From: an uncultured archaeon
Lineage (GTDB): Archaea; Hadarchaeota; Hadarchaeia; Hadarchaeales; Hadarchaeaceae
DNA length: 64,000 nucleotides
Direction of reading: 5' to 3'
Assembly (NCBI GenBank): GCA_937921735.1
Contig: CAKZTQ010000004.1
Coordinates: forward strand, 2,249 to 66,248
Numbering within the stretch: position 1 is the stretch's first letter; each line of letters starts with the position of its first letter. Made by a program: the position numbers and the translations under genes. Of the stretch, positions 16,574 to 40,347 are shown piece by piece. Under the pieces are notes generated by a model. It made no database searches and had not been told where the DNA came from. It saw only the letters and a program-made list of their open reading frames with translations.

Positions 16574-17463
16574 GTTTTCCCCTCGAGCTCGTCCCCCTCA
16601 GCCACCTTCGTGGGTTCCAAGTGCACCACCACCGACTCCAGCCCCCTCACCCTCGCCCTTAGCCTTCGCTCGACCTTAGTGGCTATAGCATGCGCGTCAT
16701 CCATGCTCACCTTCGGGTCGACGAGCACGTGTAGGTCCGCGAAGATCTTGGAGCCGACCTTTCTCGCCCGGCACCTGTGGCAGCCCTTCACGCCCGGAAC
16801 GCTTTGGCAGACCTTCCTGATCTCGGAAATCACCACCTCTCCGGGGCTCGCCTCCATGATGATATCCAGCGCGCGGCGACCCAAGCTCACCCCCCACCAC
16901 GCGACGAGCGCGGAGATGCCGAGCGCCACCAACGGGTCAGCGACCGGATACCCCAACCTGACGAAAGCAAGCCCCACCAGGACCGCGATGGTAGAGGCGG
17001 AGTCGGACAACGTGTGATAACCATCCGCCTCCACGGATGGGTGGTCGGTCCGCCTACCGACGCGGATCTTATAGCTCGCTAGCGCGGCGAAGAGGGGAAT
17101 ACTCGCAAAGGCTATGACGAAGAGCTCGAGCGTCGCCTCCATCTCGCCCCCTTTTAAAAGCCTTTCCGCAGCGAGGTAAGCTATGCGCCCGCCCGCCGCC
17201 ACCAGCACCACCGCGAGCAGGAGAAGCGCTATCGTCTCCGCCTGCCTGTGCCCGTAGGGGTGACCCCTGTCGGCCGGGCGCTTGGCTATCAGCAGCCCAC
17301 TGTAGACCGCGGCCGAGGTGGCGGTGTCGGAGAGAGCATCCATGCCGGCCGCGACGAACGCTATGCTGCCGAACAGCGAGCCCGCCACGATCTCCGCGGC
17401 CCCCACGGCTGTGGTAGCCACCATGGAGACGACGGTGGCCCTCTCTGCGGGGTCGTGAAGCAC
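16570..17463 (-). CDS. Cation diffusion facilitator (FieF-like) transporter
   Basis: DALSD, RPAD..HPYGH, DGYHTLSDS motifs and a C-terminal dimerisation domain (VVHLEP). Confidence 0.92.
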   Translation of the reverse strand: MLHDPAERATVVSMVATTAVGAAEIVAGSLFGSIAFVAAGMDALSDTATSAAVYSGLLIAKRPADRGHPYGHRQAETIALLLLAVVLVAAGGRIAYLAAERLLKGGEMEATLELFVIAFASIPLFAALASYKIRVGRRTDHPSVEADGYHTLSDSASTIAVLVGLAFVRLGYPVADPLVALGISALVAWWGVSLGRRALDIIMEASPGEVVISEIRKVCQSVPGVKGCHRCRARKVGSKIFADLHVLVDPKVSMDDAHAIATKVERRLRARVRGLESVVVHLEPTKVAEGDELEGKT

Positions 17464-17516
17464 TCAGCCACCCAAGAAAAAGAAACGATTTGATAGCCTA
17501 AAAGGAGTATCGACTG

Positions 17517-17774
17517 CTAAAGGAGGCGCCTGACGTCCAAGACTTGGACGTTGCCCACGCCCTTTATGCTGGCGAGCTCCCGCTCCAGCGGCTCCGTCCC
17601 ACCCGCGGCATCGGGCACGACGGCCACGACCCGCAGGGCCTCGAGTCCAAAAGCTATGGGCTCGCGCTGGACGGAATGGGCCTTTATGCGCGCCCTCACC
17701 TCCGCCTCGAGTTTCGAGAGGTCGACGTCGACGCTCTCGGGCATCAACCTCACGGTTACCGCGACTTCTCCCAC
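17517..17774 (-). CDS. ef1b: Elongation factor 1-beta
   Basis: MPESVDVDL, EPIAFGL, GGTE.LE motifs; 85 aa. Confidence 0.95.
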   Translation of the reverse strand: MGEVAVTVRLMPESVDVDLSKLEAEVRARIKAHSVQREPIAFGLEALRVVAVVPDAAGGTEPLERELASIKGVGNVQVLDVRRLL

Positions 17775-17783
17775 CTAAACCAC

Positions 17784-17948
17784 CTACGGCCCGACGAACC
17801 CACAGGACGGGCAGCGATAGGGATTGCTCAGCCTCCTACACTTCGCGCAGCGCCATATCTCGAAGTTCCCGCAGCTGGGGCATGGAAACTTCACCGCTCG
17901 ATCGCCCGGCGCGATCTCGCGATTGCAGGAGGTACACGTGGCCATCAT
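17784..17948 (-). CDS. Zinc-ribbon microprotein (DUF1610/HVO_2753 family)
   Basis: Manual translation MMATCTSCNREIAPGDRAVKFPCPSCGNFEIWRCAKCRRLSNPYRCPSCGFVGP. Four CxxC motifs; the usual neighbour of EF-1beta. Below the ORF-track cutoff. Confidence 0.92.
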   Translation of the reverse strand: MMATCTSCNREIAPGDRAVKFPCPSCGNFEIWRCAKCRRLSNPYRCPSCGFVGP

Positions 17949-18049
17949 CGCGACCCCACCCACCTTGGTTGGACCAGCTTTAACGTTTTCGCTTGTTCTG
18001 GCTGCCCGGCATGGACCAAGTTAAAATCCCATGGCACATATTTAATTAT

Positions 18050-18142
18050 GGGCCCGTAGTCTAGCCTGGATAGCTCAAGGCCCAGAGAGGACACAAGCCT
18101 GCGGAGCTTGCGGCCCGGGTTCGAATCCCGGCGGGCCCGCCA
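18050..18142 (+). tRNA. tRNA-Arg(GCG) with 16-nt D-loop intron (18072-18087)
   Basis: Acceptor GGGCCCG/CGGGCCC-GCCA, anticodon arm CAAGC-CTGCGGA-GCTTG, T arm CCGGG-TTCGAAT-CCCGG. Removing 18072-18087 restores a normal D arm. A BHB motif folds across the intron. Confidence 0.92.
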
Positions 18143-18146
18143 CTTT

Positions 18147-18902
18147 TTATCTGGTTAACAACTTCTCGAGCTGGGCGGCGTTCGAGTACATCTCGGTGTT
18201 GTTGAACATGATGTAGACCTCGCGGTACCTTCGCGAGAGCGCCCTCACCTTAGCTGCGAGGGTTTTGAGCTCGGCGAGCGAGTACTTGTACCTATAGTCG
18301 TACTCTCGTGGGTTAAGGCCGTGTAGCCTGAAGTACGCGATCTCGTGCCTCGAAACCGACTCCCGCCTCATCGGGTCCACGACGTGGATCAACTGGAGCT
18401 CTTCACACAGCCGCGAGATCTCGTCTGGGTGCTCCTTCCAATCGCCCCGCGGCTCCCAAGCGATGGTCAAGTTTCCCCTATCGATCTCGCTCAGGAACTT
18501 CCGCATGTTTTCGATGTTCTCCTGCGTGCAGTTGAAGTTCGGCGGGCACTGGATCACGCAAATTTTGGCCTCCAACGCCTCCGCGACTTGCCTCGTTCGC
18601 CCCCACGCCTCGAAGTTCTCGCGCGTCGGGCGGAGCCAGCCGTAGCGCCTTTTTTGCGCCTCGGTGAGCTTCAGGCCAGCTCGCCGCCAAGTGGGGCTAG
18701 TCGGCGGATGCGTGATGACTTGCCATGCCTTGAGGGTGAACTCGAAATCGCTCGGCACCTCAGCCCGCCATCGCTGCGCGGTCTTCAGCATGGGTAGCTT
18801 GTAGAAGGTCTGCTGGACCTCGACGATCGAGAACTTTCCGGCGTAAGCCTTGAGGCCACCCGGGAAGAAACCCCAGCCGCAACAGCCCACCTTGATCGCC
18901 AT
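18147..18902 (-). CDS. DUF72 domain protein
   Basis: KVGCCGW, VEVQQTFY, FEFTLKA, YFRLHG, MFNN motifs. Confidence 0.92.
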   Translation of the reverse strand: MAIKVGCCGWGFFPGGLKAYAGKFSIVEVQQTFYKLPMLKTAQRWRAEVPSDFEFTLKAWQVITHPPTSPTWRRAGLKLTEAQKRRYGWLRPTRENFEAWGRTRQVAEALEAKICVIQCPPNFNCTQENIENMRKFLSEIDRGNLTIAWEPRGDWKEHPDEISRLCEELQLIHVVDPMRRESVSRHEIAYFRLHGLNPREYDYRYKYSLAELKTLAAKVRALSRRYREVYIMFNNTEMYSNAAQLEKLLTR

Positions 18903-18906
18903 ACAC

Positions 18907-19884
18907 CTATCGCCTTGGCTTGGACTGGGCCAACCGTTCCCTGACGGCTGCCACCATCAGGGGAAATATTATGCTCGCGTCGCCTATTACCTGCACCGCC
19001 CTCGCTCGGCCGCTCACCTTGCCCCAGGACTTCGCCTCCTCCAAGGTGGCGCCGCTGAGCCCGCCTGGCTCTGGCCTGTCCATGGTTATCTGCACCGCGT
19101 AGTCGTAGCCCCCACGCTTGACCACGATCATCGCCTGTAGGATGAAGTTTTTCGGCACCCCTCCGCCCAGCATGATGGCACCGTTGCGCTTGGCCTTGCG
19201 CACTATCTCCATGAAGTCGTCGAGATCGGCGAAGGCTTCGACGAAGAAGGTTGGGCCGTGTTTGAGTTTAAACCTCCACACGTCTAGACCTATCGCCGAG
19301 TCTGAGATGGCAGGACAGAACACCGGCACTCCTTCGTCCGCCGCTGCGCGGAGGATCGAGTTTGGGTCGTCGATGCGCTTGCCAACCTCGTAGAGGAACT
19401 CGCGGATGGACATCTGTCTAGACGGGAGATCGTCGAGCAATTCTATGAAGCGCTCGTCGTACATGCTGAAGTTCTTCTCGTAAAGGAAGACGTCGTAGAT
19501 CCTATCTATCTGCAGCCTATATAGCTCGGCGTCGTCCACGATTGCGCTGCCCCTGTAGTGGGAGGCGCCGAACGCCTCGATCATGTCGTGAACCATGTTC
19601 GCGCCCGTCGTGACGAGCACATCGATGAGGTGGTCGCGAATTAAATCCGTGATCACCCGTCGCATCCCCCCCGGCACCAAAGCGCCGGCTAAGCCCAAGT
19701 AGGTCGTCGTGTCCTCTCGCGAGACCATCTCGTAGAAAATGTCTACGGCTTCCGCCACCCTGCCGGCACCGAACACACCGCACTTTCCGAACTCCCGAAT
19801 GAGCTCATCGACGGTCATGTCGCTATGGACCTTGATGTGCTCGATCCGCTTTTGGTACTCCTTCATCGCCCCTTTCATCGTCAC
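18907..19884 (-). CDS. dys: Deoxyhypusine synthase
   Basis: VLVTTGANMVHD, PAISDSAIG, GGGVPKN, GGLSGATLEEAKSWGK motifs. Confidence 0.95.
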   Translation of the reverse strand: MTMKGAMKEYQKRIEHIKVHSDMTVDELIREFGKCGVFGAGRVAEAVDIFYEMVSREDTTTYLGLAGALVPGGMRRVITDLIRDHLIDVLVTTGANMVHDMIEAFGASHYRGSAIVDDAELYRLQIDRIYDVFLYEKNFSMYDERFIELLDDLPSRQMSIREFLYEVGKRIDDPNSILRAAADEGVPVFCPAISDSAIGLDVWRFKLKHGPTFFVEAFADLDDFMEIVRKAKRNGAIMLGGGVPKNFILQAMIVVKRGGYDYAVQITMDRPEPGGLSGATLEEAKSWGKVSGRARAVQVIGDASIIFPLMVAAVRERLAQSKPRR

Positions 19885-33045: not shown

Positions 33046-33996
33046 TTAAGCAGAATAGGTATTTAACCATGCACGTAGACCAAGTAAAATTCCTACCATC
33101 GTGTCCTCTCCTGAGGTTTCGCCCATCGTCAAAACCCTACCGGCTGCTTTTTTCACTTCGTCAGATCCAGCTGCTAGTATTACTTCTAGAAAGCCCTCAA
33201 TTATTTCGTTCGTCTCGCCGATAGCCGCGTGTTTTAGCATCTGTTGGCTCAAGAGCGTTGTCCTTCCCAAAGCCGAAGTCAATATGGTTTGGTTTACCAT
33301 GTGGAGGTAATCAGTATCCTTGCCGAACGAGTTAGCCATCCAACATAAGCTAGACATGAATCCCACTAGCAGGTCATCGGCTGAGGGGGATAAACCAGGT
33401 CCAAGCCCGACAAGTTTCTTTGTGCAGCTCCCCAGGAGGTCGAGGTCTTTGGACCTGATTGCAGCCACCAAAGATCTAACGTGCGGCAAGGCCAATTTGG
33501 CAACTCGGTTTAGGCTAGACTCATCTATAGCCACGCCAGCAACGATCTCGTCCACGTAAGGCAATAACTGTCCCAAACCTCCCTCGTAGCGTCCATCGCT
33601 TACCAACCTTTTCACCGTCAGCAAATTGTTTCGGATCGCTTCGATGTCGAGCGGTTTTGTCATCCCTCTTTTCGGGAGCCATATTTCGGCGCCTTCTAGC
33701 GATATTTTGAGCCGGCCCCCGATTTCGAGCAGCGTTCCAGTCCTCGAAACTCGATCATTTTTCCCGACGAGCGACGACATCCTCGTACTTGGTAGGATAT
33801 CGGTGATCAAGCTCGCTGGACTTCTTGCCACATCGCTCCTCCCTATGCCAATGAGTTCATCGTTTACCAAAACATTGAACGCGCGTTCGAAAACGCTATG
33901 TACAATTCCTAGGGTACTCTCCATCAACGCCCTTTGCGCCGTGGGACCGATAAAGACGGCCCTTGCGTATCGCATCCGATCTTCCAAGTAAAGCAA
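33046..33996 (-). CDS. DUF2877 (AllH-like) protein
   Basis: VHSVFERAFN, LVGLGPGLSPSADDLLVG, TT.LS...L..A..G, GETSGEDTMVG motifs. Confidence 0.88.
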   Translation of the reverse strand: MLYLEDRMRYARAVFIGPTAQRALMESTLGIVHSVFERAFNVLVNDELIGIGRSDVARSPASLITDILPSTRMSSLVGKNDRVSRTGTLLEIGGRLKISLEGAEIWLPKRGMTKPLDIEAIRNNLLTVKRLVSDGRYEGGLGQLLPYVDEIVAGVAIDESSLNRVAKLALPHVRSLVAAIRSKDLDLLGSCTKKLVGLGPGLSPSADDLLVGFMSSLCWMANSFGKDTDYLHMVNQTILTSALGRTTLLSQQMLKHAAIGETNEIIEGFLEVILAAGSDEVKKAAGRVLTMGETSGEDTMVGILLGLRAWLNTYSA

Positions 33997-34037
33997 GCGC
34001 GCAAAAAGTTAAATGGTTGTTGAACGTTGAGCAGTTT

Positions 34038-34238
34038 TCATCGTTTTTCATGTAAAATTGCCGTGGTCGTGGATTCTACCCTTACCCTCCCATCCGTATA
34101 GACCCTAAAAAACCAGACCTTGCTACATTTTGGGCAGAGCCTCGAATAAAACCTCTTGGTTTTCTCGTAATATTCCGCGTCGTGTGCTTCGAAATCCCCT
34201 AGAGGAGTGCCATCTTCAGGGCATTTCACCACGACCAT
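34038..34238 (-). CDS. Zinc-ribbon-like microprotein
   Basis: CPED...CPKC knuckles, GGTGAT RBS, 1-nt gap after the AOR stop. Confidence 0.7.
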   Translation of the reverse strand: MVVVKCPEDGTPLGDFEAHDAEYYEKTKRFYSRLCPKCSKVWFFRVYTDGRVRVESTTTAILHEKR

Positions 34239-34239
34239 A

Positions 34240-36165
34240 TCACCACCTATTTTTCCTTCTAGATGGCGCTATTTTATCTAACTCATCCGCCGCGTCCTTC
34301 AGCCCGAGCTCCTCCAATTTGGCCCTAGTCGGCCAACCGGTTTCCTTATCCCACTGCCTCAGCTCGTAGTATTCATCGAGCATGGGGCCTAACAGCGGGC
34401 CAGCGGTGTATCCAGTGGCCCTGCCCGTCCCGCTCTCGACCATTATTCGCTTAGGCTGGATGTCATCTTTTCGCCCGATGCCTTCTCGAGCATTAAAGCA
34501 CCTCTGCAGGTTGTAGATCCTCTCGCCGATCTTCTTCAACTCGGCGGCATCCAACTGCATGCCGGTGGCCAAGCTTATCCCCCTCGCTAGCTCCGGCCAG
34601 TAGTAAGCCGGTGGAAAGTGCGTCCCGAACTTGCAGACTATCGCGCTGTCGGTTACCGCCCCCAGCTCCTCTCCGTCCTTTACCACCATGGGCTTGTACT
34701 TGGTAGAGAGACCGTCTACTATCTCCGGCAAATATTGCTCCCCATATCTCTTAACCGCAGCATCCACGTATCCAGTTTCATCGATGCACGGGAAACCCTT
34801 AAGGTGGTCGGCCCCTCGAGTGCTCGTGACGTGGGCCAAGATGTAGGATTGCTGACTGCGCGGGTCCTGAGCTGACATCTCCATGCCCTTGATATGCATG
34901 GCATAGTATTCAGCCCCTTTGCCAAATTTCTTGGCTGCCCTAGCTACGCCCTCGGCTAGCACGTCTCCTATACCCTCTCTCCTCGCGATCTTCTCGATGA
35001 GCTCTAGCACGACCTGAGGGTCTCCCCATTCGAGCTTCATGCCACCGGTGTCCTTCTCTGAGATGATTCCCCTTTCGAAGCACTCCATGGCGAAGGCGAT
35101 GACCCCGCCGGTTGAGATCGAATCGAGACCATAGTCGTCGCAAAGCAGGTCGCCCTTGATGATGGACGCCATGTCCCTGTTCCAAGTCCTGGCACCCAGC
35201 GCATTGATGGTCTCGTACTCTATCCCTTCCGTATAGGTGCCCTTGAATGGCCCCTCCCTAACTATAGCCGCTCGGCCACAGTTGATGGGACAGGCGTAGC
35301 AGCCCGTGCGTCTGACGAGGAATTTTTTCTCCAAGACTTCACCGGAGATCTCGTTCGCGTACGGAAAGTCACCGCGCTGGAAGTTCCTGGTCGGGAAGCG
35401 GCTGATCTCGTTCATGGGATTGACCAAGCCCGGCGTGCCGTATCGAGATGTCGAGGGCGTGTATTCATCGCTCAAGATTTGTTGTTGGACCTCGCATGCA
35501 TAATCGAAAAATTCATCGTCAGCAACCTCGACATCGAGTTCACCTCTCGCAGCCACGCACTTCAGGTTTTTACTTCCCATGACGGCGCCCAAGCCAGACC
35601 TAGCAGCAGCTCTACCGCTCGTTATAATACCAGCAAAGCGAACCAAATTTTCACCCGCTGGCCCTATGCCCGCCACCTTTATCCGTTCGTCGCCATGTTC
35701 CTGTCGTACGATCCTCTCGGTCTCCCAAGTGCCCCTGCCCCAGAGATGCGACGCATCTCGTAGCTCCGCGCGACCGTCCTCCACCCAAAGGTAAACCGGT
35801 CTCTTGCTCTTACCCTGAAAGATGATCATGTCATAACCGGCGAACTTGAGCTCGGGCGCGAAGTGACCGCCAGAGTTGGCATCTCCATAAATGCCGGTAA
35901 GGGGACTCTTGCCGATCACTTCCAGTCGACCGGCAGTTGGCCAGATCGTACCCGTTAAGGGGCCAGTACTAAGGATTAATCGATTTTCGGGGCTAAAGGG
36001 ATCTACGCCTTTTGGCACCTCGTCCCACAAAACCTTCGTGCCAAAGCCGTTGCCACCTAGGTATAGTCGAGCGCGCCACTCTTCGGTCTCCACTTCTTTG
36101 ATCTCGCCCTTAGTGAGGTCCACGCGGAGATACCTGCCGGTGTATGCGGAATACTTAAAAGCCAT
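34240..36165 (-). CDS. aor: Tungsten aldehyde:ferredoxin oxidoreductase family enzyme
   Basis: KSPLTG...ANSGG, GIGPAGENLV, AAARSGLGAVMGSKNLK, CYACPINC, DDYGLDSI, TRGADHL motifs. Confidence 0.95.
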   Translation of the reverse strand: MAFKYSAYTGRYLRVDLTKGEIKEVETEEWRARLYLGGNGFGTKVLWDEVPKGVDPFSPENRLILSTGPLTGTIWPTAGRLEVIGKSPLTGIYGDANSGGHFAPELKFAGYDMIIFQGKSKRPVYLWVEDGRAELRDASHLWGRGTWETERIVRQEHGDERIKVAGIGPAGENLVRFAGIITSGRAAARSGLGAVMGSKNLKCVAARGELDVEVADDEFFDYACEVQQQILSDEYTPSTSRYGTPGLVNPMNEISRFPTRNFQRGDFPYANEISGEVLEKKFLVRRTGCYACPINCGRAAIVREGPFKGTYTEGIEYETINALGARTWNRDMASIIKGDLLCDDYGLDSISTGGVIAFAMECFERGIISEKDTGGMKLEWGDPQVVLELIEKIARREGIGDVLAEGVARAAKKFGKGAEYYAMHIKGMEMSAQDPRSQQSYILAHVTSTRGADHLKGFPCIDETGYVDAAVKRYGEQYLPEIVDGLSTKYKPMVVKDGEELGAVTDSAIVCKFGTHFPPAYYWPELARGISLATGMQLDAAELKKIGERIYNLQRCFNAREGIGRKDDIQPKRIMVESGTGRATGYTAGPLLGPMLDEYYELRQWDKETGWPTRAKLEELGLKDAADELDKIAPSRRKNRW

Positions 36166-36169
36166 TTTT

Positions 36170-36637
36170 TCAGCCTCTAAATTTCACCCAAGCCGCGCGA
36201 GTTCTCTGGGCAACGATGTTTACGTCCGCTAGGGCGAGAACTCGTTCTGGGCAGGATTTAACACAGCCCGGGTCACCATCACAAAGGTCGCACTTGATCG
36301 CCACTTTTTTATCGGCGTGTAGCGTGATGGCGCCGAACGGACATTTCTCGATGCAAAGTCCACAGCCTATACATAAGCTTTCATCGATGTACACCAAACC
36401 ACTTTCCGGGTTTTTAGTTATCGCGCGCACAGGGCAGGCCTCTACGCACGGCGGCCTCGAGCATTGGTGGCACACGACGGGGTAGCTGATGCCATACTCC
36501 GTTCGGATGACACGAATGCGCGATTTTTCCGGGTTAAAAGCCCTTTCATGTCGAAAAGAACAAGCCAACTCACAGCTGCGACAGCCGGTGCAAGTATTGA
36601 TGGGTGGGCGCTCCATTAGGACTATCCTTTTCGCCAA
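36170..36637 (-). CDS. 4Fe-4S dicluster electron-transfer subunit
   Basis: Four Cys clusters: CTGCRSCELAC, CHQCSRPPCVEACP, CIGCGLCIEKCP, KCDLCDGDPGCVKSCP. Confidence 0.95.
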   Translation of the reverse strand: MAKRIVLMERPPINTCTGCRSCELACSFRHERAFNPEKSRIRVIRTEYGISYPVVCHQCSRPPCVEACPVRAITKNPESGLVYIDESLCIGCGLCIEKCPFGAITLHADKKVAIKCDLCDGDPGCVKSCPERVLALADVNIVAQRTRAAWVKFRG

Positions 36638-36671
36638 ACTTTATCCTCCGGTTCGGGCATGATCGCAGGTC

Positions 36672-37310
36672 TTAGATCCTTTCACCCGCGAGCTTGCCGG
36701 CCTTTATCCTGTTCCACTGTTCTTTCGTCAAGCACTCGAGGGGGGTGTAGAACCCCGGATGCTTCATCTCTGGGTAAGGCTGAGGCACGAACCCAAATGC
36801 GGCGAAGAGCTTTCGCTTGCCGATGGCGCTCTCTGGAGGTGCGTATACCCTTTCGCACCCAAGCACGTCGAACCAATGCTCCAGCTTTGCCGGCCAGAGG
36901 TAGGCGCCTATCTGCAACCCACGTTTGTCGTGTCTGACCACCGTGTGCAAGCTCATCCCGGTCTTTGGGTCTACCAGCCCGCCGTTGGTGACGCCGACTA
37001 TTTCATCGCCGACCCTGCCAACGATGATGAAGTGGCTGTCCGGGTGCATGCCCGCTATGGGCCTGTTCTCCCTCCACCACAACAGCTCCGTGCAGATCTC
37101 CGCCGATACTAAATCGAACAGGTCCTTGTGGTATGATAGGTTTGGGGTCAAGGCCTCGATGATCTCGTCTATGTCGTCCTTGGTGCCGCTGCTCATTATC
37201 ATTTCCTCGCCGTTGGGTAGTATCACCCTCCTCGGTGGATAGGGCTTCATTATTTTCTTCCAATCGTACTCCGCGCCGACAGCTCCCTTCGCAAGCGGTG
37301 CTTCCTCCAT
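36672..37310 (-). CDS. GNAT-fold (N-acetyltransferase-like) protein of unknown function
   Basis: IIVGRVGDEIVG strand, KRGLQIGAYL (acetyl-CoA motif A-like), LFAAFGF (motif B-like). Confidence 0.6.
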   Translation of the reverse strand: MEEAPLAKGAVGAEYDWKKIMKPYPPRRVILPNGEEMIMSSGTKDDIDEIIEALTPNLSYHKDLFDLVSAEICTELLWWRENRPIAGMHPDSHFIIVGRVGDEIVGVTNGGLVDPKTGMSLHTVVRHDKRGLQIGAYLWPAKLEHWFDVLGCERVYAPPESAIGKRKLFAAFGFVPQPYPEMKHPGFYTPLECLTKEQWNRIKAGKLAGERI

Positions 37311-37344
37311 TCGATCCCTCCGTTTTTGATTACCTTTACAATAT

Positions 37345-37689
37345 TTAACCGCTTTCTACAGGTTCGAACCTAAATCCGTATATGTCCTTATCTCCCAGCC
37401 TACGGAGCTTTCCCCACACCGGGCGCAACTTCATGCCTATCTTCGGTTCGTCCGTCGCGATTTGCCCGAAGGCTCGCACGCCGCCGAAATCTACTATGCC
37501 CAAGGTAAGTGGAGGCATCTCGATGCCCTCGGGCAAGGTGTAAAGTTTGGTGTAGGTAACTAACGTGCACTGATTGCCCAACTCAACCTCTTCCATGTTC
37601 ATACCCTTGCAGCTCACGCATCGCTCATGTTTGGGGTACATGATTCGACCACAGCTCTTACACCTAAAGCCCATCAACTTTTGATCCAT
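37345..37689 (-). CDS. DUF35 Zn-ribbon/OB-fold acyl-CoA-binding protein
   Basis: RCKSCG..MYPKHERC..C followed by an OB fold; abuts the thiolase-fold gene. Confidence 0.93.
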   Translation of the reverse strand: MDQKLMGFRCKSCGRIMYPKHERCVSCKGMNMEEVELGNQCTLVTYTKLYTLPEGIEMPPLTLGIVDFGGVRAFGQIATDEPKIGMKLRPVWGKLRRLGDKDIYGFRFEPVESG

Positions 37690-38853
37690 CTAATCCATCC
37701 TCTCCAAGATATGTATGACGGTATTGTTCCCGAAGCCCCCGAAGTTGCAGGCGAGGGCCCGCCGAGCACCCTTGACTTGGCGTTCTCCCGCCTCCCCGCG
37801 CAGCTGCCATACCAGTTCGACGATCTGGGCGACACCGGTGGCGCCTACGGGATGACCCCTTGCCTTTAGTCCGCCTGAGGGGTTAATGGGCAATTCGCCA
37901 TCTAGTGCCGTGACCCCCTCTTCAACAGCGATGTGCCCCTTACCCTTCTCGAAGAACCCGCAGTCCTCGCTCTGCACTATCTCTAAGATCTCGAAAGCAT
38001 CGTGCAGCTCAACCACATCTATATCCTTTGGCTCCAACTTTGCCATTTCAAAAGCCTTCCTCGCGGCCAGTCGAACCGACTTTAAAACGGCTGGATCTTC
38101 CCGCTCGTGCACGGATTGCACATCGGTGGCCTGCCCCACCCCAGCTATCCTAACGGGTGTATCGCAATACTTCTTCGCCTCATCCGCGGAACATAGCACC
38201 AGCGCGGCGGCGCCATCGCTTATAGGGCAGGTATAATAGAGCCGAATAGGGTCCGCGATCAATTGTGAACCCATAGCACCTTCGATCGTGATCGCCCTTT
38301 GGATGTGGGCGTAGGGGTTCTTCAGACCATTCGCGTGATTTTTCACGGCCACCATCGCGAGGTGTCGCTCCGTGAGGCCATACCGCTCCATGTAAAGCCG
38401 CGTCAACATCGCGGCGAGCGCGGGCAAGGTTACCCCGTGCAAGTATTCGGCAGTTGGATGGGTCATCGTTGACACTAAGTCGGTGATGACATCGGTGTCG
38501 GCGCTGGTCATCTTTTCTCCACCCGCGACGAGCACGAGGTCCGCTAAACCCGATGCGACGGCCAAAAATCCATTTTTGACCGCCGAAGCGCCTGATGCCG
38601 GGCCGTTCTCCACCCTATCCGCCGCCGCAGGGAACAAGGCGATCCTATCCACAAGGGCACTAGCGATCGCGGTCTGATGTACGAGCTCTCCAGCCATCAT
38701 ATTTCCAACGTAAACCGCGTCAAACTCTTTATCGCGAACCCCAGCGTCCTCTATCGCCTTCAGAGAGGCTTCCACCAAAATATCCATCAAGTCCTTTCCT
38801 TCAAGCCTGCCGAACTTCGTCATCCCGCATCCTATTATCGCAACATCCCTCAA
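37690..38853 (-). CDS. Thiolase-fold protein (SCP2-type) lacking the nucleophilic cysteine
   Basis: VAVKNH.NG..NP.AH, PISDGAAA, HDAF, NPSGGLKARGHPVGATG motifs; the usual ExACASG reads ENGPASG. Confidence 0.9.
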   Translation of the reverse strand: MRDVAIIGCGMTKFGRLEGKDLMDILVEASLKAIEDAGVRDKEFDAVYVGNMMAGELVHQTAIASALVDRIALFPAAADRVENGPASGASAVKNGFLAVASGLADLVLVAGGEKMTSADTDVITDLVSTMTHPTAEYLHGVTLPALAAMLTRLYMERYGLTERHLAMVAVKNHANGLKNPYAHIQRAITIEGAMGSQLIADPIRLYYTCPISDGAAALVLCSADEAKKYCDTPVRIAGVGQATDVQSVHEREDPAVLKSVRLAARKAFEMAKLEPKDIDVVELHDAFEILEIVQSEDCGFFEKGKGHIAVEEGVTALDGELPINPSGGLKARGHPVGATGVAQIVELVWQLRGEAGERQVKGARRALACNFGGFGNNTVIHILERMD

Positions 38854-38859
38854 CTTCGT

Positions 38860-39285
38860 TCACCGGCTTTTAGCCGTTCGTCCCTTTTCTTTAAAAACTT
38901 TTCGCAGCTTCCCCCTTAGGTCCCGCATGTTTTTGTACTCGATTAAAATAGCGTTCGGCAGGCCTCGGATCATCCAGGACAACTTCGTCCCGGTTTTATA
39001 AACGCAGATAATTTCCTTCCCGAGCAGGTGCGCCAGCATGAGCTCCATGCCGACACCGTGACTCGGCGTCGATACTTCGGCGACGATGGTATCGCACTCC
39101 CTCACGCCACTTGTGTCCCTTTTGAATACTTCCGCTTCGCTAAGTCCACCATTTGGATCCCTTTTCAGGACCCAGCCGGAGATTATTTCGTGACCGGTGG
39201 TTTTTATTATCTGCGCGATCTCCCTGGCAATTTCGATGTCCCTGTTCGCGACCAGAGGAACGGATAGGTAGATCCTCTTACGCAC
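38860..39285 (-). CDS. Nucleoside 2-deoxyribosyltransferase / DNPH1(RCL)-like N-glycosidase
   Basis: IYLSVPL, RD....ECD.IVAEVSTPSHGVGMEL motifs. Start taken at GTG 39285. Confidence 0.85.
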   Translation of the reverse strand: MRKRIYLSVPLVANRDIEIAREIAQIIKTTGHEIISGWVLKRDPNGGLSEAEVFKRDTSGVRECDTIVAEVSTPSHGVGMELMLAHLLGKEIICVYKTGTKLSWMIRGLPNAILIEYKNMRDLRGKLRKVFKEKGRTAKSR

Positions 39286-39372
39286 TAACCCCACCTCTAG
39301 CAACCACGCCGCTCGATAAATCCGACCGGTGGGTTTAAAAAACGATATGTAAACCAGAGCTGAGGGTCGAGC

Positions 39373-40347
39373 ATGAGGTTGGGCAGGGATTACACGAATT
39401 GCCTGGCGTTCGATTACCTCACCGAGGAGGAGAAACTGGACGTCATATATGGTCGGATCGATCTATCATCGCTAAGCGTCATCTCGCTCGCTAAGGCCAA
39501 GATGGATGTAGAGCGGCAGATCGAGGTGACCAAAGAGCTAGGCTTTCACCACGTAGAGCTCGACGCGGACCCGCCGAACCCTTACTTGAACTTCGACGGT
39601 CCTCGCAGGAAGGGTATCCTCGAAACCGCAGAGTCCTATGATGTAACGCTCTCCCTACACCTGCCATACAGTTACGTGGGCGGAAGCGCATGTTGTCCGC
39701 AGGAGGATGATCGCGCCATCGCGGTGGAACTTCACAAGAGGTGCATCGAATTCGCCTCCGATATCGGCGCTGAGTACGTCACCATGCACCCCGGAAGTAC
39801 GCCCACCTACCACAGGTTCGGGAGGTATCGCGATCTGGCGCGGGAGGCTTTGATTCGTAGCCTCGTTGAGACGGGCCGATTCGCTCAAAACTTAGGCTTG
39901 ATATTATGCCTCGAGAACAACACCGCATTCGATGATATCTTCAGCGAGCCGAACGAATGCTTGGCGGTGATCGAGGAGGTCCGAGAGCTAGGCGTAGACA
40001 TCTACTTCAACTTCGACATAGGGCACTGGTTCACTAGGCTTGACGTGGGTAAACCCATCCCGGAATCTCCAGAAAGTGTGATGGATTCGTTGCCGCCCGA
40101 TGTGCTGAAAGTGTTGCACCTCAACGACTACGTGCCCGGTGAGAGGATGTTTCACCCTCCACTACACTTGGAATGGGGACTTTTGAAGCGCGGTAACCTC
40201 GAGCGTTACGCGAAAATCGTAAAGCGTAAGGGCGTCGAGGTCGTCGTGCTAGAGACCGCGTTGAAATCCATCGGACAGGTGCTGGAGCGCTACGAGCTGC
40301 TCAGGGCCGAAAGCCACTACATCCTAGACATCTTCGAGGAAGCGTAA
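39373..40347 (+). CDS. Xylose isomerase-like TIM barrel (sugar-phosphate isomerase/epimerase family)
   Basis: VELDAD, SLHLPY, VTMHPG, LCLENN, FDIGHW, VLHLND metal-binding pattern. Confidence 0.85.
   Translation: MRLGRDYTNCLAFDYLTEEEKLDVIYGRIDLSSLSVISLAKAKMDVERQIEVTKELGFHHVELDADPPNPYLNFDGPRRKGILETAESYDVTLSLHLPYSYVGGSACCPQEDDRAIAVELHKRCIEFASDIGAEYVTMHPGSTPTYHRFGRYRDLAREALIRSLVETGRFAQNLGLILCLENNTAFDDIFSEPNECLAVIEEVRELGVDIYFNFDIGHWFTRLDVGKPIPESPESVMDSLPPDVLKVLHLNDYVPGERMFHPPLHLEWGLLKRGNLERYAKIVKRKGVEVVVLETALKSIGQVLERYELLRAESHYILDIFEEA

Follow-up and report, generated by a model that had tools for sequence, protein, structure and literature searches.

What reaction is left to a thiolase-fold protein that has lost its nucleophilic cysteine, and why would such a protein be encoded together with a nucleotide glycosidase, a GNAT-fold protein and an aldehyde oxidoreductase? 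The question is raised by a 64,000-nucleotide stretch of DNA (hereafter the window) on contig C4 (CAKZTQ010000004.1) of a 1.06-Mb, 83%-complete metagenome-assembled genome of an uncultured archaeon of the Hadarchaeota (GCA_937921735.1), in which eight genes follow each other on the minus strand. An earlier reading of the sequence (the original prediction) took them for an undescribed pathway in which C-C cleavage releases an aldehyde for the aldehyde:ferredoxin oxidoreductase (AOR). Here we report that the core of the cluster, a variant thiolase (Cys85Pro), a DUF35 protein, a GNAT-fold protein (GNATl) and an AllH homologue, is a widespread and biochemically uncharacterized cassette that is locally modified in this genome. 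Judging from comparative sequence evidence, we give about an even chance to the reading that it serves anaerobic nucleobase catabolism with a local AOR insertion, decarboxylation being the most likely reaction of the variant thiolase and DUF35.

Results

Active site of the variant thiolase

The variant thiolase is 48% identical to the canonical thiolase of the same genome, in which the sequence VEGACASG surrounds the nucleophile; the variant reads VENGPASG, replacing Cys85 by proline, and its HDAF motif stands for canonical HDCF, so that the acid/base cysteine is gone as well. The gene of the canonical enzyme belongs to an HMGCS-thiolase-DUF35 operon on contig C32, beside the only HMG-CoA synthase (HMGCS) gene of the assembly. 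The cluster thus lacks HMGCS, as the original prediction had stated, and no HMGCS match was found in any of the 84 variant-thiolase loci.

We searched a collection of 5.8 billion proteins and retained the 120 closest homologues (70-98% identical), the named ones among them coming from Hadarchaeota, Bathyarchaeia, 'Thaumarchaeota' and Methanoperedens. All 120 have proline at the cysteine site, and 119 have the dipeptide G-P. The 80 genome loci that we fetched by protein further span Asgard archaea and bacteria labelled Thermotogae, Bipolaricaulota, Eisenbacteria, Zixiibacteriota, Gemmatimonadota and Anaerolineales, and all read N-G-P. We then compared residues between 85 members of this clade and 16 canonical Hadarchaeota thiolases. 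Every clade member has N-G-P at the cysteine site, and P85, A286 (of HDAF), C369, C209, Y154, F374 and N376-N377 are invariant, while H284, H334 (of GHP) and N370 are retained. Canonical thiolases have C85 in 15/16, C286 in 13/16 and, where the clade has C369, a histidine in 16/16. The description of the protein as 'Cys-less' therefore holds for the nucleophile and fails for the protein as a whole, given its two clade-invariant cysteines C209 and C369.

Across these 85 sequences from many phyla, which are 57-85% identical overall, the segments N83-G84-P85-A86, H284-D-A-F, G333-H-P and C369-N-F-G-G-F-G-N-N vary little or not at all. Conservation is highest in the loops around the active site, which speaks for a site that has been rewired and still works, and against decay. 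The same conservation makes it extremely improbable that the protein is a non-catalytic scaffold which, with DUF35, organizes the GNAT or AllFGH enzymes, even though both canonical catalytic cysteines are gone and DUF35 is known as a scaffold in thiolase complexes, among them the archaeal thiolase/HMGCS complex.

The start of the DUF35 gene abuts the stop codon of the variant thiolase gene, and binding of the two proteins is predicted from this adjacency; the DUF35 cysteines follow the pattern C10-x2-C13...C24-x2-C27. Fold and DUF35 pairing are shared with the archaeal thiolase/HMGCS/DUF35 complex (PDB 6ESQ/6ET9; PDB match E 5e-89), in which a third partner gene is likewise translationally coupled. 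Unlike in that complex, the thiolase component has Pro85, HDAF and a cysteine for H369, its third partner is a GNAT and not HMGCS, and its distribution is patchy (28/66 Hadarchaeota genomes), tracking AllFGH and XDH.

A thiolase fold without the nucleophilic cysteine, joined to a DUF35 partner, is also found in Ltp2-ChsH2 and Sal-Shy (PDB 6OK1; PMC12329534), which shows that such proteins can be enzymes and not relics. These aldolases use a catalytic Tyr and a His/Cys, both within a Y-D-[H/C]-[F/Y] motif (PMC12329534). The variant thiolase reads H-D-A-F, with histidine for the catalytic tyrosine and alanine at the H/C position, and no MaoC hydratase partner accompanies it. True acetoacetyl-CoA thiolases match it far better (E 1e-89) than Ltp2 does (E 6.5e-30), and the thiolase fold and both oxyanion-hole histidines (H284 of HDxF, H334 of GHP) are present and invariant. 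HDAF by itself is not decisive against membership among the thiolases, since PDB 7YVY, deposited as a thiolase, has it too. With Cys85Pro, HDAF and no tyrosine motif, the variant thiolase fits neither the thiolases nor the known aldolases.

GNATl and the DUF35 junction

GNATl scored 21.3 bits against PF00583, just above the cut-off of 20.7. Its AF2 model (pLDDT 89.2) matched the GNATs PA3270, RimJ and SpeG in Foldseek with probability 1.0 and TM 0.55-0.67. In a 26-sequence alignment the CoA-pyrophosphate motif R130-G-L-Q-I-G-A is intact, with R130, G131 and G135 invariant, and a second invariant motif reads S120-x-H122-T123.

In about 45 of the 84 loci GNATl is the immediate neighbour of the thiolase/DUF35 pair. 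Its gene follows DUF35 in Hadarchaeota and precedes the thiolase in bacteria and Bathyarchaeia, and stop and start codons often overlap. One Bathyarchaeia locus (L060, ~17000-19000) has, besides the copy upstream of the thiolase, a shorter second GNATl paralogue of 181 aa directly after AllF-AllG-AllH. The original prediction had named the boundary at 37310/37345, between DUF35 and GNATl, as the place where the cluster might fall apart. Since the two genes are neighbours in the window's order in 20 other loci, this junction is among the best conserved and is no functional seam. Comparison of gene pairs places the real seams at GNATl|FeS and Zn-ribbon|AllH, two junctions that are confined to two genera.

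AllH and the conserved neighbourhood

The AllH homologue matched PF11392 over the full profile with 82.2 bits (cut-off 25) and is the only copy in the genome. In eight related loci (L008, L016-L021, L041) it directly follows GNATl. E. coli AllFGH is an oxamate carbamoyltransferase that forms carbamoyl phosphate from an N-acyl-urea and acts with the carbamate kinase AllK (PMC11326118). The likeness extends to AllF and AllG, which are linked to the cassette in relatives (AllF as an FdrA homologue, NF004760, 466 bits, cut-off 433), and to carbamate kinase, which co-occurs phyletically. It ends where AllH in the window is joined to thiolase, DUF35 and GNAT rather than to AllF and AllG, and where the cassette adds XDH and a cyclase-family hydrolase; oxalurate from allantoin is an unlikely substrate.

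We called open reading frames (ORFs) in all loci, clustered the proteins, labelled the clusters and counted them within ±10 kb of the variant thiolase. DUF35 was found in 61 loci, GNATl in 39, AllH in 17, AllG in 15, the cyclase-family hydrolase in 12 and AllF (FdrA) in 11. The XDH-family Mo subunit (with FAD and 2Fe-2S subunits) and a TRZ/ATZ-type amidohydrolase (Amidohydro_1) each occurred in nine loci, a methylmalonyl-CoA-mutase-type (MCM) protein in eight, MobA, acetyl-CoA synthetase (ACS), AOR, the FeS protein and the divergent TIM barrel in six each, and PNP_UDP_1 and DeoC in five each. Nucleoside-type (Bmp) ABC transporters recur as well. In three bacterial loci (L069, L070, L075) the order is XDH(FAD, 2Fe-2S, Mo)-AllH-AllF-AllG-cyclase, divergent from GNATl-thiolase-DUF35. 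The closest Hadarchaeum loci (L016, L021/L092) have, next to a minus-strand TIM gene, uridine phosphorylase, thiolase, DUF35, GNATl and AllH, then ACS/CoA-transferase, AllG, AllF and cyclase; L019 resembles them, but there an ABC-transporter block separates the phosphorylase from the thiolase.

Phyletic profiles over 66 Hadarchaeota species genomes showed the same linkage. The canonical thiolase is near-universal, while the variant (at least 55% identity) occurs in 28 genomes, AllH in 25, AllG in 29, XDH-Mo in 31 and carbamate kinase in 28. The variant thiolase and AllG occur together in 23 genomes, the thiolase alone in five, AllG alone in six and neither in 32 (Fisher p 7e-8); the thiolase is likewise associated with AllH (p 9e-8), XDH (p 1e-6) and carbamate kinase (p 5e-5), and AllG with carbamate kinase (p 7e-8), all of these values being uncorrected for phylogeny.

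Literature searches on FdrA/YlbE/DUF2877 with XDH, cyclase or thiolase, on Hadarchaeota with AOR or nucleosides, and on thiolase-like decarboxylases returned no description of the cassette. The claim that the cluster belongs to an undescribed functional unit is borne out, and its core is conserved in many loci. Its partners, namely AllF, AllG and AllH, cyclase, XDH, carbamate kinase, uridine or AMP phosphorylase and MCM, point to nucleobase catabolism and carboxy-acyl-CoA chemistry.

The window's own genome carries carbamate kinase, DeoC and a nucleoside phosphorylase. We considered whether its AllH is an orphan without AllF and AllG, and regard this as the less likely case, since in a genome of the same genus (G009) a 12.5-kb contig encodes cyclase, AllG and AllF, and XDH fragments are present as well. 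In a blastn comparison that contig had no counterpart in the window's assembly, either because the assembly has a gap there or because the strains truly differ; as the genes lie on a contig that is missing here, incompleteness is likelier than true absence. The contig (L093, G009:C88:1-12511) carries cyclase, AllG, AllF (cut by the contig end), an Lhr-type helicase, a TIM barrel, a PALP enzyme and an MFS transporter.

Contig C18 of the window's genome carries, outside the window, another region (L110, G000:C18:28001-47815) that is a candidate for nucleobase catabolism. This region encodes a PreA-like DHO_dh+2xFer4 protein, an SsnA-like amidohydrolase (413 bits, cut-off 444), another amidohydrolase, the alpha and beta parts of an ADP-forming acyl-CoA synthetase, a carbamate kinase (462 bits, above the cut-off), and the closest paralogue of the window's FeS-AOR pair.

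The inserted AOR block

The AOR matched AFOR_N (E 2.7e-82) and AFOR_C (E 1e-130), its best PDB match being the Pyrococcus furiosus AOR (1AOR, E 8e-145). The CxxCxxxC motif of a [4Fe-4S] cluster is present (TGCYACPINCG), and tungsten is the metal expected from the family. As in AorAB and WOR5, the gene of an iron-sulfur (FeS) subunit lies directly upstream. Unlike those systems, the pair sits inside a nucleobase-type cassette, has no FAD subunit and is followed by a small Cys/His-ribbon ORF (Zn-ribbon). This ORF had no match in Pfam or NCBIfam and is conserved solely in two other loci, L012 (91%) and L013 (84%), directly after the AOR.

It is only in the window and in these two loci, representing two genera, that the ~2.7-kb FeS-AOR-Zn-ribbon block separates GNATl from AllH. 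Since GNATl and AllH are adjacent in eight relatives, the block is a lineage-specific insertion. The public records of L013 and L014 bear the title 'Candidatus Hodarchaeaceae', which is a name from the Asgard archaea; L013 corresponds to genome G040, from the window's own family in the Hadarchaeota, and its record probably carries the wrong label.

The window's genome (G000) holds eight AOR-family paralogues in 1.06 Mb (contigs C4, C16, C18, C21 and C39), three of them beside a 4x[4Fe-4S] subunit gene, and FeS-subunit paralogues are paired with AORs on C16 and C18. In a maximum-likelihood tree the window AOR and those of L012 and L013 formed a group whose sister is the two paralogues on contigs C18 and C16 of the window's genome (92/96). 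Tree and gene order together identify the window AOR as a lineage-specific duplicate and the block as a recent in-operon insertion. Elsewhere, AOR genes adjoin the cassette in L048, where an independent in-operon insertion reads DUF35-MoaD-FeS-AOR-Amidohydro_2-AllG, and upstream in L044, and lie near it in L052; all three fall in other parts of the tree and are not orthologues of the window AOR. A cassette-specific AOR subfamily is thereby ruled out. Since AORs make up about eight of every thousand genes, their occasional place beside the cassette elsewhere is close to what chance would give.

These results bear on the original logic of the cluster, namely that the variant thiolase and DUF35 form an Ltp2/Sal-like retro-aldolase that cleaves a 3-hydroxyacyl-CoA to acyl-CoA and an aldehyde, and that coupling to the AOR is the purpose of the cluster. 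The resemblance to Ltp2-ChsH2 and Sal-Shy set out above, the AOR gene within the operon with short gaps and Shine-Dalgarno sequences, its counterparts at L048, L044 and L052, and an enolate-stabilizing site whose C369 might act as acid/base and could in principle serve aldol chemistry all speak for it. However, the residues that do the work in Ltp2 and Sal are missing, most cassette loci have no AOR, the AORs that are linked are not orthologous, and the conserved partners (AllFGH, cyclase, XDH, MCM) include no aldehyde-oxidizing enzyme. With AOR paralogues as dense as they are, we consider this reading quite improbable, and the proposed release of an aldehyde for the AOR is not upheld.

A different view of the block is that it is an unrelated passenger using the cassette promoter, so that only thiolase, DUF35, GNATl and AllH, perhaps with the glycosidase, cooperate. 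Its confinement to two genera, the recent paralogy to the genome's other FeS-AOR pairs and the broad-specificity 1AOR type of the enzyme agree with this, as does the fact that the insertion-bearing sister genomes keep XDH elsewhere, so that the AOR replaces no core step. Those genomes, G009 and G040, also dispose of a candidate that we had tried, the AOR as a stand-in for XDH, which its place before AllH, like that of the bacterial XDH, had suggested. Yet the block has stayed intact in the same place at 85-97% protein identity across both genera, AORs were inserted independently in the operon of L048 and upstream in L044, and the pathway plausibly makes aldehydes, as the genome has DeoC and DNPH1 releases deoxyribose-5-phosphate. 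We therefore find a mere passenger somewhat unlikely, and a supporting role of the AOR in the cassette pathway plausible.

Substrate clues from glycosidic-bond enzymes and mutases

Three non-homologous enzymes that cut the bond between base and sugar are encoded just upstream of the variant thiolase, depending on lineage. In the window and L013 it is a DNPH1-like gene. Uridine phosphorylase lies directly upstream in L016 and L021/L092 and ~6.5 kb upstream in L019, where it scored 301.8 against the TIGR01718 equivalog cut-off of 280.3, and AMP phosphorylase (TIGR03327, 768 bits) takes this place in Methanoperedens. The window's DNPH1-like protein matched PF05014 with 32.4 bits (cut-off 28.8). 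Its best PDB matches are the 2'-deoxynucleoside 5'-phosphate N-hydrolase DNPH1/Rcl (E 3.5e-8) and the CMP N-glycosidase MilB, and the Glu of its GVGMEL motif aligns with that of GVGYEL in Rcl/DNPH1, which we take to be the catalytic Glu. Unlike in these enzymes, only the C-terminal half of the window protein aligns well. Phosphorylases hold its position in other lineages. We read the DNPH1-like glycosidase, like the AOR, as a local addition to the cassette.

The second clue comes from mutases. In six loci of Methanoperedens, Asgard archaea and Anaerolineales, thiolase-DUF35 is directly followed by a split mutase, and in two further Methanoperedens loci a mutase lies ~2 kb downstream on the opposite strand. 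Those of L035, L057 and L038 are best described as methylmalonyl-CoA mutases (NF006944, 652-675 bits, vs 338-360 bits for IcmF); RQYAGF/Y is found in six of the eight mutases and RQYSGF in one, and no such motif was found in the remaining one. A methylmalonyl-CoA mutase beside thiolase-DUF35 suggests that the substrates belong to the carboxylated acyl-CoAs. The thiolase-DUF35-MCM operon was seen in L007, L035 and L039 (Methanoperedens), L038 (Anaerolineales), and L057, L078 and L089 (Asgard), and no GNATl homologue was found in these operons. A gene for a separate B12-binding subunit follows the mutase in the Methanoperedens and Anaerolineales loci and not in the Asgard ones; in L089, 2-oxoacid:ferredoxin oxidoreductase genes precede the operon.

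E. coli sbm-ygfG encodes a methylmalonyl-CoA mutase and then a methylmalonyl-CoA decarboxylase, YgfG. The mutase beside thiolase-DUF35 in Methanoperedens and Asgard archaea recalls this arrangement, but YgfG has the crotonase fold, and the predicted thiolase-fold decarboxylase would be a new solution.

The mutase operons, which lack both GNATl and All genes, and the Asgard context of acyl-CoA dehydrogenase and ETF could also be taken to mean that the thiolase/DUF35 pair serves succinate- or propionate-type acyl-CoA metabolism, for instance by decarboxylating or epimerizing methylmalonyl-CoA in concert with the mutase, and that the nucleobase link is secondary. This is very improbable in our view, since in Hadarchaeota, Bathyarchaeia and many bacteria both position and phyletic profile tie the pair to GNATl, AllFGH, XDH and cyclase, and since no MCM match was found in the window's own genome. 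Should thymine yield methylmalonyl units, the nucleobase and mutase contexts would be compatible.

Cluster layout and candidate promoters

The ORF calls gave eight minus-strand ORFs over 33046-39303 with intergenic gaps of 0-41 nt (Table 1). ORFs and domain matches agree with the co-directional genes, named domains and divergent sugar-isomerase-like TIM barrel of the original prediction, and the TIM gene keeps its position in five other Hadarchaeota loci.

Table 1. Genes and sequence elements of the cluster and its divergent neighbour, in window coordinates
Feature	Position	Strand	Matches and remarks
AllH/DUF2877 homologue	33046..33996	-	PF11392, 82 bits; third subunit of AllFGH-type carbamoyltransferases
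66-aa Cys/His-ribbon ORF (Zn-ribbon)	34038..34238	-	part of inserted block
AOR, tungsten-type aldehyde:ferredoxin oxidoreductase, AOR sensu stricto type	34240..36165	-	AFOR_N and AFOR_C
FeS electron-transfer subunit, AorA/WOR5-S type	36170..36637	-	four 4Fe-4S Cys motifs; Fer4 families; first gene of inserted block
GNATl, GNAT-fold protein, distinct conserved family	36672..37310	-	PF00583 marginal; fold confirmed by AF2 model and Foldseek
DUF35 (Zn-ribbon and OB fold)	37345..37689	-	zf-ChsH2, 28 bits; OB_ChsH2_C, 25.9 bits; CxxC...CxxC
Variant thiolase, thiolase-fold paralogue	37690..38853	-	Thiolase_N, Thiolase_C_1 (Pfam, NCBIfam)
DNPH1/Rcl-like (deoxy)nucleotide N-glycosidase	38860..39303	-	Nuc_deoxyrib_tr PF05014; head gene
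A/T box (candidate), TTTTTTAAA, other strand TTTAAAAAA	39334..39342		read from sequence; in the 69-87-nt divergent intergenic region
Xylose-isomerase-like TIM barrel	39373..40347	+	PF01261, 86 bits; divergent

The glycosidase ORF opens at TTG 39303, and GTG 39285, the start implied by the original prediction, is the likelier start, because it is preceded by the Shine-Dalgarno sequence GAGGTGGGG. The A/T box lies ~30-50 nt from both divergent starts (TIM ATG 39373 and glycosidase GTG 39285) and is a candidate archaeal TATA element that would serve the operon and the TIM gene in both directions. Within the cluster, GGAGGG stands 6 nt ahead of the GNATl ATG and GGAGGA ahead of the TTG start of the FeS subunit. 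Shine-Dalgarno sequences before internal genes fit a polycistron, and the eight genes, which are real, probably form a single operon.

Discussion

Starting from protein families, conserved residues, and gene and phyletic linkage, we infer the following pathway, whose substrate, GNAT direction, decarboxylase activity and AOR substrate are our proposals. A nucleotide or nucleoside would be split, here by the DNPH1-like N-glycosidase. The XDH-family enzyme would then hydroxylate the base, probably a pyrimidine and most likely uracil or thymine, and a hydrolase would open its ring. AllFGH would then take off the ureido group as carbamoyl phosphate, from which carbamate kinase would make ATP. GNATl would move the C3 remainder to CoA, or hold it, as a malonyl or methylmalonyl unit, which the variant thiolase and DUF35 would decarboxylate to acetyl- or propionyl-CoA. 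No acyl-enzyme would form in this last step; the retained oxyanion-hole histidines would stabilize the enolate, a new cysteine standing next to N370, and the mutase-linked variant of the cassette would fit methylmalonyl-CoA. AllF, AllG, cyclase and XDH would be encoded elsewhere in the genome and missed by the 83%-complete assembly. The inserted AOR would probably oxidize an aldehyde by-product and pass the electrons to ferredoxin. One candidate is acetaldehyde, which DeoC would split from the deoxyribose-5-phosphate released by the DNPH1-like enzyme, and another is malonate semialdehyde.

Several observations weigh against this nucleobase-catabolic reading. To our knowledge, decarboxylase activity is without precedent in a thiolase with a Cys-to-Pro exchange. 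The sole comparable case, TbSLP, decarboxylates malonyl-CoA with a kcat of 0.005 s-1. GNATs of the malonyl-CoA-decarboxylase type were not among the top 50 Foldseek matches of GNATl, which comprised solely generic N-acetyltransferases. The XDH-family enzymes and the amidohydrolases of TRZ/ATZ type could also act on purines or on other N-heterocycles. AllF, AllG, cyclase and XDH were not found in this 83%-complete assembly, and the Fisher tests that link such genes to the thiolase across the Hadarchaeota ignore phylogeny. AllH may own a separate promoter, as the interval between the Cys/His-ribbon ORF and AllH (34000-34040) holds a T5 run and ATTTAAC, TATA-like at ~34005-34015, and its start may be ATG 33975 rather than TTG 33996. 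The role of the AOR, finally, is a guess.

By analogy with the archaeal thiolase/HMGCS/DUF35 complex, the nucleobase-catabolic reading can be carried one step further. GNATl, the variant thiolase and DUF35 would form a channelling complex of a new kind, in which the GNAT works in reverse. CoA would receive a (methyl)malonyl group from the nitrogen of an amide or acyl-urea at no cost of ATP, and decarboxylation on the thiolase would pull this unfavourable reaction. Together with XDH, the cyclase-fold hydrolase, AllFGH and carbamate kinase, this complex would complete an oxygen-free, energy-conserving degradation of pyrimidines, to which Hadarchaeota would have added a tungsten AOR for the electrons of an aldehyde side-product. 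So specific a scheme is, in our estimate, unlikely.

Taken together, our results support the original prediction in part, in that the undescribed pathway holds and its retro-aldolase-to-AOR logic does not.

Four reactions are known from pairs of a thiolase and a DUF35 protein: Claisen condensation, thiolysis, C-acetyl transfer and retro-aldol cleavage. A large archaeal and bacterial clade in which both catalytic cysteines are replaced, two new cysteines are invariant and a GNAT is the partner implies a fifth chemistry for this fold. The archaeal loci, with a uridine or AMP phosphorylase or a DNPH1-like gene at the head and MCM as an alternative partner, narrow the range of substrates and make the hypothesis testable in vitro. 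The cassette is probably part of a so far unrecognized route that supplies microbes of the subsurface and of hot springs with carbon, nitrogen and ATP from the bases of nucleic acids under anaerobic conditions.

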